Shown here: positions 2,331 through 8,426 of the stretch, one piece after another
How positions within the stretch are numbered: the stretch's first letter is position 1
Layout: each line of letters starts with the position of its first letter
UHGV virus genome: UHGV-0478452
Reading direction: 5' to 3' (one strand)
Origin: a virus
DNA length: 19,921 bases
Made by a program: the position numbers and the translations under genes
Notes under the pieces: model-generated
Databases searched by the model: none
Seen by the model: only the letters and a program-made list of their open reading frames with translations
What the model was told of the DNA's origin: nothing

Positions 2331-2360
2331 AAAATAAAAAGGGAACCTTTTACAGTTCCC
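2331..2360 (-). terminator. rho-independent terminator (stem GGGAAC/GUUCCC, 8-nt loop, then UUUUUAUUUU)
   Basis: Plus strand aaaataaaaa-GGGAAC-cttttaca-GTTCCC at 2331-2360; on the minus strand the hairpin is followed by a U-run, between the stop of ORF 2374..2685 and the RBS of the 1806..2321 gene. Confidence 0.7.
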
Positions 2361-2373
2361 TAATCATATACGT

Positions 2374-2969: not shown

Positions 2970-3227
2970 TTAAAGTTTAATACAGAACTGTTTCAGTTCT
3001 TCTTCTGTTACGGAAACCACTTTGTCATCTTCAACAATATTTGTTGCGTAGAAGTTTGACATGTGTGACTTATATTTTACTCTGAAAACTTCAACTTCTG
3101 CAAGCTTTTTTAAAGCGTCTAATCCAGTTGTATCAAAAAGACTCTTTGTGTACTTCTGCCAATCTTCAAGAGTGTTAGGGTTAACCTTATACTCTCCAAA
3201 CAGTGAGCTATTGCAAGAGATGGTCAT
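2970..3227 (-). CDS. hypothetical protein (85 aa from ATG 3227; alternative start at 3290 would overlap the nrdG 3' end)
   Basis: Track ORF 2970..3368 overlaps the nrdG C-terminus in another frame. The ATG at 3227 has GAGGTGAG 4 nt upstream and lies 25 nt after the nrdG stop; the ATG at 3290 also has a GGAG RBS. Confidence 0.45.
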   Translation of the reverse strand: MTISCNSSLFGEYKVNPNTLEDWQKYTKSLFDTTGLDALKKLAEVEVFRVKYKSHMSNFYATNIVEDDKVVSVTEEELKQFCIKL

Positions 3228-3252
3228 AATCTCACCTCTTCGAAAACCCGCT

Positions 3253-3738
3253 CTATTCTGCTCTCCATTGACAGTCGCCTTGCCAGCCATATTCTTTTCT
3301 CCAAAGTATTTGATTGTCAGACCCACGATACGGTTTGTGTGTCGGTTTAGAAGCATCATACTTACCATCTATTACCACGTCAACATATTTCATCACTTCT
3401 AAGTTGATTTTTTCATGTAGCTGGTAACCTGTCCATAACCATATAGATTTGTCTGGGTATACGGTTTTAATCCGCTTACAGATATTTGTTACTGTCTGAA
3501 CATTCCTATCATCAAGTGGTTCTCCACCAAGGATAGATAGACCACTGATTCCATCATCATTCATTATCTGCATAATGCCATAAAGGTTTGCATAAGTAAA
3601 CTCTTTACCAGCATTAAACTTCCAAGATTCCTTGTTAAAGCAACCTTCACAGTGATGTTTGCAGCCAGCTACAAAAAGACTGACACGAGCACCTTCACCG
3701 TTTGCTGTATCGAATTTTCGTATTTCCATGTAGTTCAT
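3253..3738 (-). CDS. nrdG: anaerobic ribonucleotide reductase activating protein (radical SAM activase)
   Basis: 161-aa ORF with the CxxxCxxC radical-SAM cluster motif (GCKHHCEGC) near the N-terminus and WLWTGY / VDVVIDGKY segments resembling T4 NrdG as recalled. RBS GAGGTG before ATG at 3738. Confidence 0.85.
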   Translation of the reverse strand: MNYMEIRKFDTANGEGARVSLFVAGCKHHCEGCFNKESWKFNAGKEFTYANLYGIMQIMNDDGISGLSILGGEPLDDRNVQTVTNICKRIKTVYPDKSIWLWTGYQLHEKINLEVMKYVDVVIDGKYDASKPTHKPYRGSDNQILWRKEYGWQGDCQWRAE

Positions 3739-4130
3739 TAGTACACCTCAACTTCAAAACTCACATGCTTTGTGATGTACTCTTCACAGTGCTCTTTAAT
3801 AAATTCCTGAAGCAGTTCATCTTCCTGAGCACGAGTCATCAAAGCAACATACTTAGGGTTCATTGTTTGTTCAATGCTGTAGAATGAAAGGTTACCAATC
3901 TCTGTACCATCTTCATCACACCATGTACCAGTTGCTACCAAAACTTTACCACACAGTGAGTGGGGGATGTTAAAACCTTCTATCTCAGCAGAACTAATGA
4001 CTTCTTCATCTATCATCAATGTGTAAGCTACATAGAATGAGGAATATCTTCTGTGAGTTTTCTCACAAGAGCCACACTCTAAAGCATAATCTTTAAGCCA
4101 GTTCATTTGATTTTTATTTAATTTAGTCAT
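3738..4130 (-). CDS. hypothetical Cys-containing protein (130 aa; CGSC ... C ... WCDED)
   Basis: ORF with RBS AAGGAAAGAG before ATG at 4130; stop overlaps the nrdG start (TAATG). No recognised domain. Confidence 0.55.
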   Translation of the reverse strand: MTKLNKNQMNWLKDYALECGSCEKTHRRYSSFYVAYTLMIDEEVISSAEIEGFNIPHSLCGKVLVATGTWCDEDGTEIGNLSFYSIEQTMNPKYVALMTRAQEDELLQEFIKEHCEEYITKHVSFEVEVY

Positions 4131-4227
4131 TTCTCTTTCCTTTCAATGTGTTGTATAAAAGCCCTAACAAGAAACCTAGTAAGACAGAGCCTACTAAGGT
4201 GACTAACAAGAATGTCTTAATCATCAT
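4123..4227 (-). CDS. putative small single-pass membrane peptide (34 aa, MMIKTFLLVTLVGSVLLGFLLGLLYNTLKGKRND)
   Basis: Not in the ORF track (below its length cutoff). Manual translation of the minus strand: ATG at 4227-4225 overlaps the TGA of the upstream gene (TGATG), followed by a hydrophobic stretch, a basic end, and a TAA at 4125-4123 overlapping the next gene's start. Confidence 0.35.
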   Translation of the reverse strand: MMIKTFLLVTLVGSVLLGFLLGLLYNTLKGKRND

Positions 4228-4484
4228 CAATACCACCATATTGTTTGGTTGTTATCACAAACATACAGGTACTCTGTCCCGATTTGTGGGACGATGATTG
4301 TAGTGTTGCCTGAGATGACTGTCATATAGTATAGGTAATTTCTACTCTGTGACGTTTGCTGACAATGGTTTGCAGTCATCCAAAGCTTAGTGTGGTAACT
4401 GTCATACACAGCAAAACCTATCAGAATTACTAATGCAATCCCAAGAAACCATAAACAAAATTTAGGCCAAAAATCATAGCTCAT
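4227..4484 (-). CDS. putative membrane protein (85 aa; N-terminal TM helix FCLWFLGIALVILIGFAVY, two Cys in the C-terminal part)
   Basis: Track ORF 4227..4511; the internal start MSYDFWPK at 4484 forms an ATGA overlap with the stop of the upstream gene (4481-4483). Confidence 0.5.
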   Translation of the reverse strand: MSYDFWPKFCLWFLGIALVILIGFAVYDSYHTKLWMTANHCQQTSQSRNYLYYMTVISGNTTIIVPQIGTEYLYVCDNNQTIWWY

Positions 4485-4663
4485 GCTGTGACCTCTTGAT
4501 AAACTTTCCAAACGTTTTTTGTTAAGTCCTCGTCATACCATACCCCATTAGAACCTTGCCAAGACACAGTGTATTTATTTTCAGATAAATGTTTGAGGAC
4601 AGCCTCAAGTGTGCGATTAGACTTTCCTGCAACGAAAAGGTAAACCTTGCCAATTTTCAACAT
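4481..4663 (-). CDS. hypothetical protein (60 aa)
   Basis: Track ORF 4481..4702; internal ATG at 4663 (MLKIGKVYLF...) has GGAGATAA upstream and avoids overlap with the nrdD-proximal hairpin. Confidence 0.45.
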   Translation of the reverse strand: MLKIGKVYLFVAGKSNRTLEAVLKHLSENKYTVSWQGSNGVWYDEDLTKNVWKVYQEVTA

Positions 4664-4682
4664 TTTATTATCTCCAATAAAA

Positions 4683-4722
4683 AGGTGATGTAAGCCTATC
4701 AAGACCTACACCACCTTGTCAA
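4683..4722 (-). promoter_or_regulatory. nrdD-distal regulatory region: imperfect hairpin followed by a U-run, overlapping a TTGACA -35-like hexamer
   Basis: Minus strand reads TTGACA-AGGUGGUG-(18-nt loop)-CAUCACCU-UUUUAUU-GGAGAUAAA-AUG. The stem has one G-U pair and a large loop; only a weak -10 (TAGGCT) follows the -35 at 18 bp. Confidence 0.25.
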
Positions 4723-4726
4723 CTAC

Positions 4727-6868
4727 TTACATAGATTTTCTATCCTGAATTTCAGCAATTTTTGCATCATTCATTCTGGAAGTACCTTTAATCTTAGTCC
4801 AGCCAAGATAACCACAAACACGGTTAATCACAGAGATATCGTGTGAGTTGCACTTAGGACACAATTCAACATCTGCACTTGGACGGTGACCACAATTCTC
4901 ACAGATTGCCAAGTCAAAGTTAACACCTTGATAGAAACCTTTACCCATACCTCTTGTCACACAAGCCCTAATAGCTTTATGATTCTCTGGATTAGCAATA
5001 CGAACGTACTGGATATGACCACCATTACAAGCATGGAAGAAAGGTTCTTCTAAGTCTTGCTTTTCAAATGGTGTAATATCTGCACCAACATTCATGTGGA
5101 AGCTGTTTGTAAAGTATTCTTTATCAGATACACCTTTAACAACTCCAAACATGTTTCTAAACTGCTTCAATTGCGTACCACAAAGGCTCTCAGCAGGTGT
5201 ACCATAGAGGGCATACAAGAAACCATCTTCCTGTTTAAACTGCTCCAGCTTGCCATTCAGGTAGTTTAAAACCTTACCTGCAATATCACCGTCTGACTCA
5301 TGTAATCTCTTACCTTGTGCAAGGACTGTCAACTCATCCAATGCAGTGACACCAAAAGAGGCTGTAAAAGATTTCACAGTATCCCAACCAATTTTGTCAG
5401 TTGGCTTCTTATGACCTTTATACAAACCACCTTGTGTGAATGCTAGAGGGTTAGAACTTGCTGGCATATTAGCAATCATCTCATAACGCTTTTTATGGAA
5501 GCTTCTAATCATCTCAAGATACTTGTCAAGTTCTGTCCAGAAGTTTAAACCATTCTCTTCAGAATACTTGTAAATCATTGGCAGATTAAGAGATACTGCA
5601 CCAATGTTTGCTCGCCCTGTGTAGAACTCTTTACCATCTTCGTCATGATATGGTGATAAGAAAGCTCTACAACCCATTGGAGAGATGACTGCACCTGAAC
5701 GCTCAAAAGCTTCTGCAACAGAACCATGACCAGAAACACTTAAGAAGTCTGGGTACATAGCTTTAGAACAACACTCAATAGCTTTATCATAAAGAGTTCC
5801 CTGCCAAGGGTCTAGCATATGTCTTGTCTCATCATAAATGTAAACCAGTTTAGGGAATACAACAGGCTTCTTAGACTTACCTTGACCATTCATTCTCACA
5901 TCAAGAATAGTCTTCGCAATCATAAATTGCAAGCGGTTGTCTTCACTAGCCATATCTGGTTCAAGTAAACCAAATGTTAATGTTGTAAATGCAAAGTCAC
6001 CACGGCTGCAAGGGACAGTGTTTAGCTTCATTTCCAGAGATTGGAAACCTTGTGTCAGTTCAATCTGGAGTTGCTCTTTAGCATAGTGGTATACATCTTT
6101 ACTTGGGATATTATACTGCTTTGCTTTCTCCAGATGATACTCAAAAGACTTCTTAGCATATGGCACAAGAACCTTGTCAATCTCTGGGATAGTGAACCCA
6201 CCAAATTGCTGTGCAGTTGCTGAGAGTACAACGTCACCAATGACCTGTAAAGCTGAAAGTACAGACTTTGGTTCACAGTATTCGATGCCAGACATTTCAA
6301 AACCACCTTTCAAGACGCTTCCAATGTCAAACAAGCAACAGTTAATACCACCGAAGATTAAATCTCTTAAGTCATGGATATAAATGAATCCCTCTTCAAT
6401 AGCACTTGCTTCTTCTGGTGTCAAGTGATACTGCTTAAAGATTTCTTTTGTCAAATATCCACGGATGATTGAACCTTTTGTAGAGATTAAGCTACTGTCA
6501 AAGTTAGCATTCTCACGGTCACCTAAGAAGAGTGTGTCCTTAGTTTTCTGGTAAAGCTCATCCCAATTCTGTGCAACCTCTTTACGATAGTTTCTGTAGG
6601 TTGAGTATGACTCATAGATTTCATGGTTTACTTCTGCCAGAGTTCCTTCCACAATACTGTGAACATCATCTACAGAGATGAGCATAGCATTCTGATTAGT
6701 TGCTCTGACAAGCAGTCTCATAAAGGCTGATTCAAGAGCATGGATAACTTCTAGTGGTAACTCTTTGTAGCCAACTCTATTAGCTGACTTGGTAACTGCT
6801 TCGACGATTTTATTTACATTTGGTTTTTCCAGTGAACCGTCTTTCTTAATAATTTGTACTTTAACCAT
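4727..6868 (-). CDS. nrdD: anaerobic ribonucleoside-triphosphate reductase (class III RNR) with N-terminal ATP-cone
   Basis: Track ORF 4727..6958; I place the start at ATG 6868 (MVKVQIIKKDG...), which has AGGAG 5 nt upstream and lies after the terminator hairpin. The translation carries the glycyl-radical motif RVCGYLG near the C-terminus and a Cys zinc ribbon (CENCGH...CPKC). Confidence 0.92.
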   Translation of the reverse strand: MVKVQIIKKDGSLEKPNVNKIVEAVTKSANRVGYKELPLEVIHALESAFMRLLVRATNQNAMLISVDDVHSIVEGTLAEVNHEIYESYSTYRNYRKEVAQNWDELYQKTKDTLFLGDRENANFDSSLISTKGSIIRGYLTKEIFKQYHLTPEEASAIEEGFIYIHDLRDLIFGGINCCLFDIGSVLKGGFEMSGIEYCEPKSVLSALQVIGDVVLSATAQQFGGFTIPEIDKVLVPYAKKSFEYHLEKAKQYNIPSKDVYHYAKEQLQIELTQGFQSLEMKLNTVPCSRGDFAFTTLTFGLLEPDMASEDNRLQFMIAKTILDVRMNGQGKSKKPVVFPKLVYIYDETRHMLDPWQGTLYDKAIECCSKAMYPDFLSVSGHGSVAEAFERSGAVISPMGCRAFLSPYHDEDGKEFYTGRANIGAVSLNLPMIYKYSEENGLNFWTELDKYLEMIRSFHKKRYEMIANMPASSNPLAFTQGGLYKGHKKPTDKIGWDTVKSFTASFGVTALDELTVLAQGKRLHESDGDIAGKVLNYLNGKLEQFKQEDGFLYALYGTPAESLCGTQLKQFRNMFGVVKGVSDKEYFTNSFHMNVGADITPFEKQDLEEPFFHACNGGHIQYVRIANPENHKAIRACVTRGMGKGFYQGVNFDLAICENCGHRPSADVELCPKCNSHDISVINRVCGYLGWTKIKGTSRMNDAKIAEIQDRKSM

Positions 6869-6883
6869 TCTGACTCCTAATAC

Positions 6884-6907
6884 AAAAAAGGTCTCCGAAG
6901 AGACCCT
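6884..6907 (-). terminator. rho-independent terminator (GGUCUC-UUCG-GAGACC then UUUUUU)
   Basis: Plus strand aaaaaa-GGTCTC-cgaa-GAGACC at 6884-6905; on the minus strand the hairpin has a UUCG loop and a U-run, directly upstream of the nrdD RBS. Confidence 0.75.
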
Positions 6908-6917
6908 TATATTAATT

Positions 6918-7118
6918 CTACTTAGAAAACTTTTCAATAAGCTTTTTAAGCTTTCCACTCAAATCATGTTTGATATCTAATATCTCAAAGATAACCCATA
7001 CTAGCATAGCTCCAAATAGAGCACCTTGTTTTAAATCAGTAAACAGGCTAGTAACCATGAATGCCAGAGCAATCATCGGAGCATCTTCAACAAAACCATC
7101 CCATAAACGTTTAAGCAT
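6918..7118 (-). CDS. small hydrophobic protein (66 aa; two hydrophobic segments)
   Basis: ORF whose start overlaps the stop of the glutaredoxin gene; translation contains MIALAFMVTSLF and ALFGAMLVWVIFEIL. Confidence 0.5.
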   Translation of the reverse strand: MLKRLWDGFVEDAPMIALAFMVTSLFTDLKQGALFGAMLVWVIFEILDIKHDLSGKLKKLIEKFSK

Positions 7119-7353
7119 TATTCACCTCTGCCATAAAGTTCTGTAGTGTTCCAACAGGTTTCATTTCATTGTCTTCAACCTTCATAATGAAAGGCATCTG
7201 ACGAACAGGTATCTTTGCAATATCCATCAGGTCACTTAGCTCATAATCTTTCCCAAGCATTCTAACAACATGGTCTAAGCCACGAGCCTGAGCAAAGTTC
7301 TTAGCAGTCACACACTGTGGGCATCCATCTTTTGAGTAAATTACATAAGTCAT
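7111..7353 (-). CDS. glutaredoxin/NrdH-like redoxin (CPQC active site)
   Basis: 80-aa ORF with C-P-Q-C at residues 11-14 after an N-terminal beta strand (YVIYSKDGCPQC); start overlaps the nrdB stop (TAATG). Confidence 0.7.
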   Translation of the reverse strand: MTYVIYSKDGCPQCVTAKNFAQARGLDHVVRMLGKDYELSDLMDIAKIPVRQMPFIMKVEDNEMKPVGTLQNFMAEVNNA

Positions 7354-8426
7354 TAAGGAACCTCTAAAAATCCTGAATTTAAATCATCAACAACGGTATT
7401 CAAAAGGTACGCACCATTTTGTTGTTCTTGGTTAGCGTTTTGCTCTTTATCAATTTCCATCTTTTTAATCATATATTTCAAAGGTGGTTCTTTAGGAGCT
7501 ACGAAGTCTCTTGGAATACCAAACATATCATACAATGGAGCAGCGTTGTAGTAAACCCATTCGTGAAGAAGTTTTGTATTTAAACCTACAACAGCACGTC
7601 CTTCAGAGAAAATATAATAAGACCATTTCTCTTCACTTTCAACTACCTCATCCAGAATTACTTTAATTTCTGGGAGTACTTGACGGAAAGCTTCTTGCCA
7701 CTCTTCATCTTTCAAAGTTTCTTTTAATGCTTCGATATCAATCTTTGTGTGAATGATTTCGTCAAGCATAATTTTCTGTACTGCTTGTGCAATCCCTTGG
7801 AACTTATCTTGTGCATCAAGTGCAAAGGTACATGCAAAGGATGCCATGAAGGAAATACCCTCAAGTGCTGTTACTGCAAAGAGACCTTTTAAGATTACTT
7901 TGTGGAAGTGTAAAGGGTCTTTCTCCATTAGCTCTTGACGAACATAGCTTAAACGATAGTTAATACCTTCGTCAAGAAGTTCTGCCAGTGCTCTGTTCAC
8001 AGTCTTCAATCTGTCCTGAACAGCAGCGTTCTGGTTAATCTCATCAAGGATTGTTTCAGGGTTCTTGATACACTGACGAACAATCTCTGAATAAGTTAGT
8101 GCATGAAGGTTCTCAATTTCTGATTGCTTCATGATAGCAGTTGCATAGATATCATCAGAAATGAATGGTGCAAATGCAAAAGCTAAACTCTTAGCAACCT
8201 GTGTATCTGCTTCCCATTGCCATTTCAGAATCTCAAGCATTACACCAGACATTGACTGAGGGACACTCTCAAAGTCTAACCGTGACTGTTCAAATGGGAA
8301 CTCATCTTCAGACCAGTCTTGTGCTTTCTGCTGCTTATACAGTTCAAAGATTTTTGGATAGTGTTTATTCAGTGAATCGAAAGTTTTTCGTTCACCGCCT
8401 AAGAAAATTGGATGTGGATTAATCAT
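7353..8426 (-). CDS. nrdB: ribonucleotide reductase class Ia small (beta) subunit
   Basis: 357-aa ORF directly downstream of nrdA with R2-family features as recalled (long helical protein, HTKIDIE-type iron-ligand segment, C-terminal tail); no intron interrupts it. Confidence 0.88.
   Translation of the reverse strand: MINPHPIFLGGERKTFDSLNKHYPKIFELYKQQKAQDWSEDEFPFEQSRLDFESVPQSMSGVMLEILKWQWEADTQVAKSLAFAFAPFISDDIYATAIMKQSEIENLHALTYSEIVRQCIKNPETILDEINQNAAVQDRLKTVNRALAELLDEGINYRLSYVRQELMEKDPLHFHKVILKGLFAVTALEGISFMASFACTFALDAQDKFQGIAQAVQKIMLDEIIHTKIDIEALKETLKDEEWQEAFRQVLPEIKVILDEVVESEEKWSYYIFSEGRAVVGLNTKLLHEWVYYNAAPLYDMFGIPRDFVAPKEPPLKYMIKKMEIDKEQNANQEQQNGAYLLNTVVDDLNSGFLEVP

Follow-up and report, generated by a model that had tools for sequence, protein, structure and literature searches.

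Analysis of a 19,921-nucleotide stretch of the virus genome UHGV-0478452 (the whole stretch is hereafter called the window) revealed four small genes, p60, p85, p33 and p130, between nrdD and nrdG, the genes for the catalytic subunit and the activase of the class III (anaerobic) ribonucleotide reductase. Comparison with related phages indicates that this gap is probably built of two layers: an ancestral one made up of p33 and p130, and a variable one in which p60 and p85 occupy a swap-prone slot. Megablast searches found that about 3.8 kb around the locus matches Shigella phage Sf17 at 96% identity and other Mooglevirus genomes at 90-96%, and that 260 records match the nrdD-nrdG region; judged by its sequence, the source phage is a Mooglevirus of the Ounavirinae (the Felix O1 subfamily). 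The gene order on the minus strand is nrdB, a glutaredoxin gene, an open reading frame (ORF) of 66 amino acids (aa), nrdD, p60, p85, p33, p130 and nrdG. An initial annotation of the same DNA had described four small ORFs of 60, 85, 34 and 130 aa between nrdD and nrdG, and both the ORF calls and the sequence agree with the positions that it gave. The Pfam domains of NrdD (NRDD, 6.7e-116; ATP-cone, 8.2e-12; Gly_radical, 7.1e-5) and of NrdG (Fer4_12, 1.6e-43, plus Radical_SAM) identify the two proteins as a class III ribonucleotide reductase pair. Their genes are 988 bp apart in the window, with a terminator-like hairpin in the gap, and do not form an adjacent operon of the bacterial style.

The comparison set consisted of the window and 40 Ounavirinae loci taken from GenBank and IMG/VR (41 in total, some of them from duplicate genomes). 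The initial annotation had regarded nrdD and nrdG as normally adjacent partners of an operon split by inserted genes. They were found to be adjacent in none of the 41 loci, where the gap ranged from 550 to 1628 bp. In E. coli the gap is 157 bp, and adjacency is the bacterial state, not the phage norm. The picture of a split operon has therefore to be corrected: as far as the comparison reaches, the nrdD and nrdG genes of Felix O1-type phages are never neighbours, and the gap between them has a fixed part and a swap-prone part.

The fixed part comprises p130, found in 39 of the 41 loci, and p33 or its Felix O1 counterpart ORF118, found in 36. Every Mooglevirus and Suspvirus locus has p33, including those without p60 and p85, and the minimal locus of 550 bp (Moogle, Mijalis, L031 and L032) contains only nrdD, the hairpin, p33, p130 and nrdG. 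Since p33 and p130 lie upstream of nrdG in most of the loci compared, that of Felix O1 included, we take them to be ancestral residents. The p85 gene was present in 14 loci and the p60 gene in eight, always directly upstream of p85. Both are missing in the siblings Moogle and Mijalis, and Sf13 and Sf18 have p85 alone; this patchiness among siblings marks p60 and p85 as variable cargo. The number of phage records falls in the same order (355 for p130, 93 for p85 and 14 for p60), so the four genes are not conserved together in all relatives. The accessory insertion proposed in the initial annotation thus stands for p60 and p85 and fails for the resident p33 and p130. In the arrangement that we propose, the first layer would be a membrane peptide (p33) and an acidic cytoplasmic protein (p130) resident upstream of nrdG nearly subfamily-wide, and the second a soluble protein (p60) and a bitopic membrane protein (p85) in a plastic slot behind the nrdD hairpin. 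The same slot is empty or holds only p85 in siblings, and elsewhere, as in T4, a homing endonuclease gene lies between nrdD and nrdG.

All insertions and deletions of the gap are bounded by the sequence of the hairpin between nrdD and p60. In the window p60 starts 12 nt past the T-run of this hairpin, in Sf13 p85 starts 17 nt past it, and in Moogle p33 starts 12 nt past it. A homing endonuclease gene was found between nrdD and nrdG in seven of the 41 loci. Its place in SUSP1 and SFPB is between the nrdD stop codon and the hairpin; it encodes a 187-aa protein in SUSP1 (phrog_655, 1.1e-49) and is an HNH gene in SFPB. L020, L021, L022 and L035 also carry such a gene in the gap. The same intergenic position is thus occupied in related genomes, as in a homing-endonuclease insertion hot-spot. 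The endonuclease gene of SUSP1 (L004/L010) ends K-S-M-stop like nrdD, and about 13 bp are duplicated flanking the insert. In Shigella phage vB_SflM_004 (P0075) a chimeric gene was found, whose N-terminal half resembles the 66-aa two-helix protein of Felix O1-type phages and whose C-terminal half resembles p85; from its sequence, this chimera is evidence of recombination inside the slot.

The same four genes stand in the same order in the Mooglevirus phages Sf17, Michonne, Mordin, KMM4 and HP1. In Felix O1 the gap holds ORF118, ORF119/p221 and ORF120, and in UAB_Phi87 it holds orf73-75; the gene table of UAB_Phi87 lists membrane proteins of 41 and 66 aa and a 131-aa protein between nrdD and nrdG (PMC4837284). 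Felix O1-type phages have the same hairpin sequence after nrdD as the window, and in place of p60 and p85 they have a 66-aa two-helix membrane protein (phrog_11929), often together with a 99-aa protein. In T4 the gap holds mobC, a homing endonuclease gene, alone; it is a variable, mobile separator as in the window, although the inserted genes of T4 have no sequence homology to those described here. Hyperplastic regions of T4-type phages are shuffled by recombination between promoter/stem-loop cassettes. Siblings that differ just by p60 and p85, or by an endonuclease gene at the same place, provide a natural experiment for a membrane protein phenotype.

The hairpin between nrdD and p60 is the strongest terminator-like site of the whole window. 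Its RNA fold has an energy of -24.5 kcal/mol, compared with -11.0 ± 2.6 kcal/mol for shuffled sequences (z = -5.3), and none of 200 shuffles was as stable. Mooglevirus phages conserve it, its sequence can be recognised in Felix O1-type phages, and the hairpins after and upstream of nrdD are annotated as terminators in Michonne and Mijalis. No Rfam family was found in positions 3000-7200. The hairpin was also considered as a repeated mobile cassette, which was rejected since it is unique in the window. The initial annotation had treated the genes from nrdD to nrdG as one class III reductase operon; as the hairpin at 4682-4717 separates nrdD from the small genes, nrdD and nrdG probably do not constitute one simple operon. 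With nrdD flanked by two hairpins, the four small genes appear, along with nrdG and a few ORFs downstream of it, as a separate block, and the next hairpin with a T-run on the minus strand, downstream of nrdG, likely closes this block, which starts with p60 and continues past nrdG. The genes of this second unit (p60-p85-p33-p130-nrdG), which would extend to that hairpin, would be coupled in their translation. A perfect -35 hexamer, TTGACA, was seen in the ascending arm of the nrdD hairpin (4705-4722, minus strand); its best -10 partner, TAGGCT, 18 nt downstream, matches at 3 of 6 positions and is too weak to pass the promoter scan. The pair could be a promoter overlapping the terminator.

The chaining of the genes by overlapping stop and start codons, as proposed in the initial annotation, was confirmed by reading the junctions from the sequence: p60 and p85 are joined by ATGA, p85 and p33 by TGATG, p33 and p130 by an 8-nt overlap (ATGACTAA), and p130 and nrdG by TAATG. 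A Shine-Dalgarno-like sequence precedes every start of the small genes and of nrdG. Pairwise Nei-Gojobori estimates against relatives gave ratios of non-synonymous to synonymous substitution (dN/dS) of 0.06-0.15 for p60, 0.07-0.24 for p85, 0.06 for p33 (against phage HP1) and 0.14-0.38 for p130, with nrdD (0.03-0.09) as the comparison gene. All four frames are open in ESh22-type phages at just 51-69% protein identity. Being conserved and under purifying selection, the four small ORFs are, on these sequence comparisons, real genes. We give almost no credence to the idea that they, and above all the 33/34-aa peptide, are chance open frames in a spacer. The peptide is short, of low complexity and unannotated in Sf17, Sf13, Michonne and Moogle, as a chance frame would be; against this, every relative has the frame open, ESh22-type phages (63% aa identity) among them, its hydrophobic core and basic tail are kept, and its differences from HP1 comprise 8 synonymous and 2 non-synonymous changes. 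The peptide gene has a Shine-Dalgarno sequence, overlaps both neighbours by stop and start codons, and is homologous to ORF118, an annotated membrane protein of Felix O1. Three of the four small genes are annotated as hypothetical proteins in the records of Sf17 and Michonne, and the records of KMM4, HP1 and ESh22 additionally annotate the 33/34-aa peptide. The arrangement is already annotated in relatives, and the region is an ordinary hyperplastic phage region.

In the resident layer, p33 has a single hydrophobic stretch (Kyte-Doolittle 19-residue maximum 2.62) and a basic C-terminal tail, KGKRND; it is probably a single-pass protein with this tail in the cytoplasm. The protein is 100% identical to that of Sf17. 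The 34-aa peptide of the initial annotation was upheld as a gene (conserved frame, dN/dS as above), and its length was not: the start conserved in relatives is the second ATG (4224), giving 33 aa and a sequence beginning MIKTF. The records of KMM4 and HP1 give the peptide 33 aa and that of ESh22 gives it 34, and an ATG at 4239, which would give a 38-aa peptide, has no Shine-Dalgarno sequence. From these alignments translation probably starts at 4224. Comparison with phrog_20082 gave an E value of 2e-4, which is weak, the match being collinear and syntenic; Felix O1 ORF118 itself matches this family at 9e-40. The two proteins have the common core GSVLLGFxLGLxY, unfiltered local tblastn found 65-75% identity over residues 12-31, and a 36-nt DNA core of p33 is 89% identical in Felixounavirus (blastn). 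By sequence and position p33 is a diverged member of the ORF118 family; the Felix O1 counterpart has 41/54 aa, and the peptide of the window is shorter and adjoins p130.

The second resident, p130, is an acidic cytoplasmic alpha/beta protein, with an isoelectric point (pI) of 4.7, 5 Cys and no hydrophobic stretch. It matches phrog_4382, the family of Felix O1 ORF120, over residues 1-129 (2.9e-60) and has the conserved core EHRxYSxF ... GxWxDxxG of that family; the homologous protein of Felix O1, of 130/131 aa, is about 52% identical and lies in the same position. An AlphaFold2 model had a predicted local distance difference test (pLDDT) score of 93 and an alpha/beta fold. Foldseek found nothing in the PDB for this model (best E value 0.36), its neighbours in BFVD were all uncharacterised phage proteins, and no PDB sequence match was obtained. 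A full-library profile search gave 42 clusters, ten of which were scanned against Pfam: six short clusters had no Pfam family above the cut-off, and four long multi-repeat matches, to Ig-like or type IX secretion surface proteins, were put down to noise from repeats or composition. Conservation does not extend to the CxxC of p130, which is lost in ESh22-type and T7-type members. The locus draws attention to four conserved phage proteins, one of which has a confident structure model and no match to characterised structures.

The centre of p130 (4063-3884) has 50-77% DNA identity to Sf17, and both flanks have about 100%. At the protein level p130 is 76-79% identical to the proteins of Sf17-type phages, which have a different central allele from that of the window, and 92% identical to that of KMM4. 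In codons 29-88 dS is 1-2 and dN is also raised (ratio 0.18-0.34), compared with a dS of 0.08-0.25 in the flanks. Diversifying selection on the centre was rejected, dS being raised along with dN; on this pattern the centre is a recombined older allele, the product of allele exchange and not of positive selection, and by the same comparison at least two p130 allele types recombine within Mooglevirus. Homologues of p130 also occur elsewhere: T7-like phages of Klebsiella and E. coli have one immediately upstream of exonuclease gene 6, and a Proteus phage has one near its DNA polymerase gene, with no nrdD or nrdG annotated near any of these. Two loci, L035 and that of Hafnia phage Zyzzx, keep nrdD and nrdG without p130. 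Given these homologues away from nrd genes and the two loci without p130, the association of p130 with nrdG is judged to be positional and not obligate, and p33 and p130 would have a function independent of the reductase. The homologue in Citrobacter phage HP1 (L053), HP1_97, is labelled 'tail tube protein' in GenBank and UniRef, a label that finds no support here and is probably a mis-annotation.

In the variable layer, p85 has one hydrophobic helix (Kyte-Doolittle 19-residue maximum 2.56, residues 9-27); together with p33 it accounts for the two membrane proteins recognised in the initial annotation, each with one strong hydrophobic stretch. The protein is 98% identical to that of Sf17 and matches phrog_8826 over its full length (8.5e-37). 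An AlphaFold2 model (9 sequences; pLDDT 86.6) shows a helix at 5-38 and strands at 42-58, 61-76 and 80-84. Cys41 and Cys76, which flank the two long beta strands in the model, are kept in 8 of 9 aligned sequences, the exception being the one chimeric gene, and could form a disulfide closing the hairpin. In the model p85 looks like a bitopic membrane anchor with a small periplasmic three-stranded beta domain; we infer the periplasmic location of the C-terminal domain from the placement of the two cysteines. Acting at the envelope, p85 would then have its Cys41-Cys76 beta-hairpin domain in the periplasm. No PDB sequence match was obtained for p85.

The T4 proteins Imm, Sp and RI resemble p85 in size and architecture, having an N-terminal membrane helix and a periplasmic domain; the ectodomains of Sp and RI are helical, whereas that of p85 is predicted to be beta. 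By this analogy a role in superinfection exclusion, or another envelope-directed role, is plausible. The three T4 proteins have no PHROG, Pfam or PADLOC link with p85, and no T4-type phage appeared in the organism tallies or among the matches listed in the p85 tblastn search. Seuratvirus siphophages, a Pectobacterium phage and a jumbo-phage contig also carry relatives of p85, there at unrelated loci. None of p60, p85, p33 and p130 has a Pfam or PADLOC family, and their NCBIfam matches are at chance level, far below the cut-off; in these three collections the four proteins do not belong by sequence to any described superinfection-exclusion or anti-phage defence family.

The other variable protein, p60, is soluble and basic (pI 9.0), with no hydrophobic stretch. 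It matches phrog_24391 over its full length (1.5e-43), is confined to Mooglevirus and is 98% identical to the protein of Sf17. Its motif N-x-Y-x-V-S-W-Q-x-S-x-G-x-W (with L/T following the Y in the shared blade motif) aligns with each of the seven blades of CV39L, a Chromobacterium lectin (PDB 6gxs), and an upstream motif, A-G-x-x-N-x-x-L-E/Q-V, stands at the same spacing as in the lectin blades. The whole-chain E value against 6gxs_A (4.3e-10) is inflated by the seven copies of one short motif, and the best E values against a single blade (2.9-8.6) are individually not significant. A seven-repeat profile scored p60 at 16.3 bits, compared with a maximum of 13.7 bits in 20,000 composition-matched shuffles and 6.4 bits for the next-best ORF (79,000 residues of background). 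The seven-bladed beta-propeller lectins BP39L and CV39L (PropLec7C) have repeats 50-53 aa apart, so that the 60 aa of p60 are about one blade; the lectins have seven blade copies and p60 a single one. By these motifs p60 could be a single-blade lectin-like protein; true homology to the CV39L blade has some chance of being real, and we lean towards doubting it. A review lists the PropLec7C lectin family as absent from viruses (PMC11186620).

The initial annotation implied that all four genes are recent moron cargo dropped into a contiguous nrdD-nrdG operon, with the membrane proteins serving superinfection exclusion. The patchiness of p60 and p85 and the relatives of p85 at unrelated loci agree with such an origin, as does the PHROGs class of the ORF118 family ('moron, auxiliary metabolic gene and host takeover'). 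It is nevertheless unlikely to account for the gap as a whole: p33 and p130 occur in nearly all of the loci compared and nrdD and nrdG are adjacent in none, and for none of the four proteins does a Pfam or PADLOC family, or an NCBIfam match above chance, point to exclusion. A scan of 185,579 bacterial and archaeal species genomes found no homologue of p60 or p85, hence no host or prophage donor. A second possibility concerns the resident pair, which might be dedicated factors of the class III reductase that tether or regulate NrdG at the membrane or supply or control reductant. This would explain the translational coupling of p33 and p130 to nrdG: in the window, as in every Mooglevirus and Suspvirus locus examined, p130 ends in a stop codon that overlaps the start of nrdG, and the position is conserved subfamily-wide. 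The same layout was found in an unrelated podophage group (L042-L047, contigs of about 40 kb, NrdD 51% identical), where the nrdD-nrdG gap of 524-728 bp (about 4300-5001) holds one or two membrane peptides of 43-53 aa and, with its stop codon overlapping the start of nrdG, a gene for a 108-aa Cys-rich protein. The 108-aa protein has no Pfam or PHROG family, and its homology to p130 was rejected (hhalign probability 0.2%); the parallel could be a coincidence in gene-dense phage genomes or a hint of a functional link to NrdG.

We nevertheless regard dedicated reductase factors as very unlikely. The p130 family also stands beside replication genes in phages with no nrdD or nrdG annotated nearby, L035 and Zyzzx have both reductase genes without p130, the Felix O1 homologue lies 59 bp from nrdG, and other Felix O1-type phages have an additional 99-aa gene between the homologue and nrdG. 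Moreover, p130 has no conserved Cys or cofactor motif, and the podophage protein is without detectable homology to it. If the reductase link were true, the class III ribonucleotide reductases of phages would have an accessory layer that has gone unrecognised, and the podophage pair would be a convergent solution, for example to holding the NrdG activase at the membrane or gating it there; otherwise the practical value of the locus is small, and the understanding of ribonucleotide reductase and of phage defence is unchanged. That p130 is an RNase-like effector of the barnase, EndoU, colicin or RelE type, acting on host or phage RNA, is very unlikely, as His26 is kept in just 23 of 30 members of the wider family (being Phe or Tyr in the others), His114 is not conserved, and the BFVD neighbours are all uncharacterised. 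The two-layer interpretation, with resident p33 and p130 and variable p60 and p85, is therefore preferred. Several observations weigh against parts of it. A p85 homologue (28% identity) directly follows nrdD in the distant Hafnia phage Zyzzx, and from its sequence p85 may be a long-standing resident subject to frequent loss or replacement, and not a recent arrival. The topology of p85 is based on the Cys pair and the predicted model, the positive-inside rule being ambiguous. The promoter scan found no convincing sigma-70 promoter between the hairpin and p60, and the hairpin may instead terminate transcription weakly or act in RNA stability. That p130 is tightly coupled to nrdG, and that the podophage layout is similar, is also compatible with a link to the reductase.

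Table 1. Genes and terminator-like hairpins of the nrd region of the window
Feature	Position	Strand	Assignment or remark
nrdB	7353-8426	-	ORF call
Glutaredoxin gene	7111-7353	-	ORF call
66-aa hydrophobic ORF	6918-7118	-	phrog_4532; between the glutaredoxin gene and nrdD
Terminator-like hairpin upstream of nrdD	6887-6908	-	brackets nrdD together with 4682-4717
nrdD, class III (anaerobic) ribonucleotide reductase catalytic subunit, 713 aa	4727-6868	-	Pfam; 98% aa identity to Sf17 gp95
Terminator-like hairpin with T-run	4672-4717 (16-pair stem 4717-4682)	-	directly 3' of the nrdD stop, before p60
p60, 60-aa ORF	4481-4663	-	phrog_24391
p85, 85-aa ORF	4227-4484	-	phrog_8826
p33, hydrophobic peptide	4123-4227 (34 aa) or 4123-4224 (33 aa)	-	phrog_20082 family
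p130, 130-aa ORF	3738-4130	-	phrog_4382
nrdG, radical-SAM activase of the class III reductase, 161 aa	3253-3738	-	Pfam; 100% aa identity to Sf17 gp99
Next terminator-like hairpin with T-run	2340-2361	-	downstream of nrdG

Some features of the surrounding region were also recorded (Table 1). An ORF 3' of nrdG (2970-3368, minus strand) can be read as 132 aa, overlapping the final 116 nt of nrdG; relatives annotate it with 85-106 aa and with no overlap or one of 38 nt, and its start is uncertain. The nrdD gene of the window is intact. Many Felixounavirus nrdD genes carry an insertion of about 0.3-0.7 kb, and nrdD spans 2884 bp in L017, L018, L020, L021, L023, L028 and L035 and 2458 bp in L033 and L048; the insertion splitting the nrdD of Felixounavirus is described as a homing endonuclease gene (PMC4837284). 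The 66-aa protein encoded upstream of nrdD is named a membrane protein in Felix O1 and Mijalis. Small membrane proteins are thus dispersed along the whole nrd cluster of the window, as small predicted membrane proteins (gp55.8) are found within that of T4.

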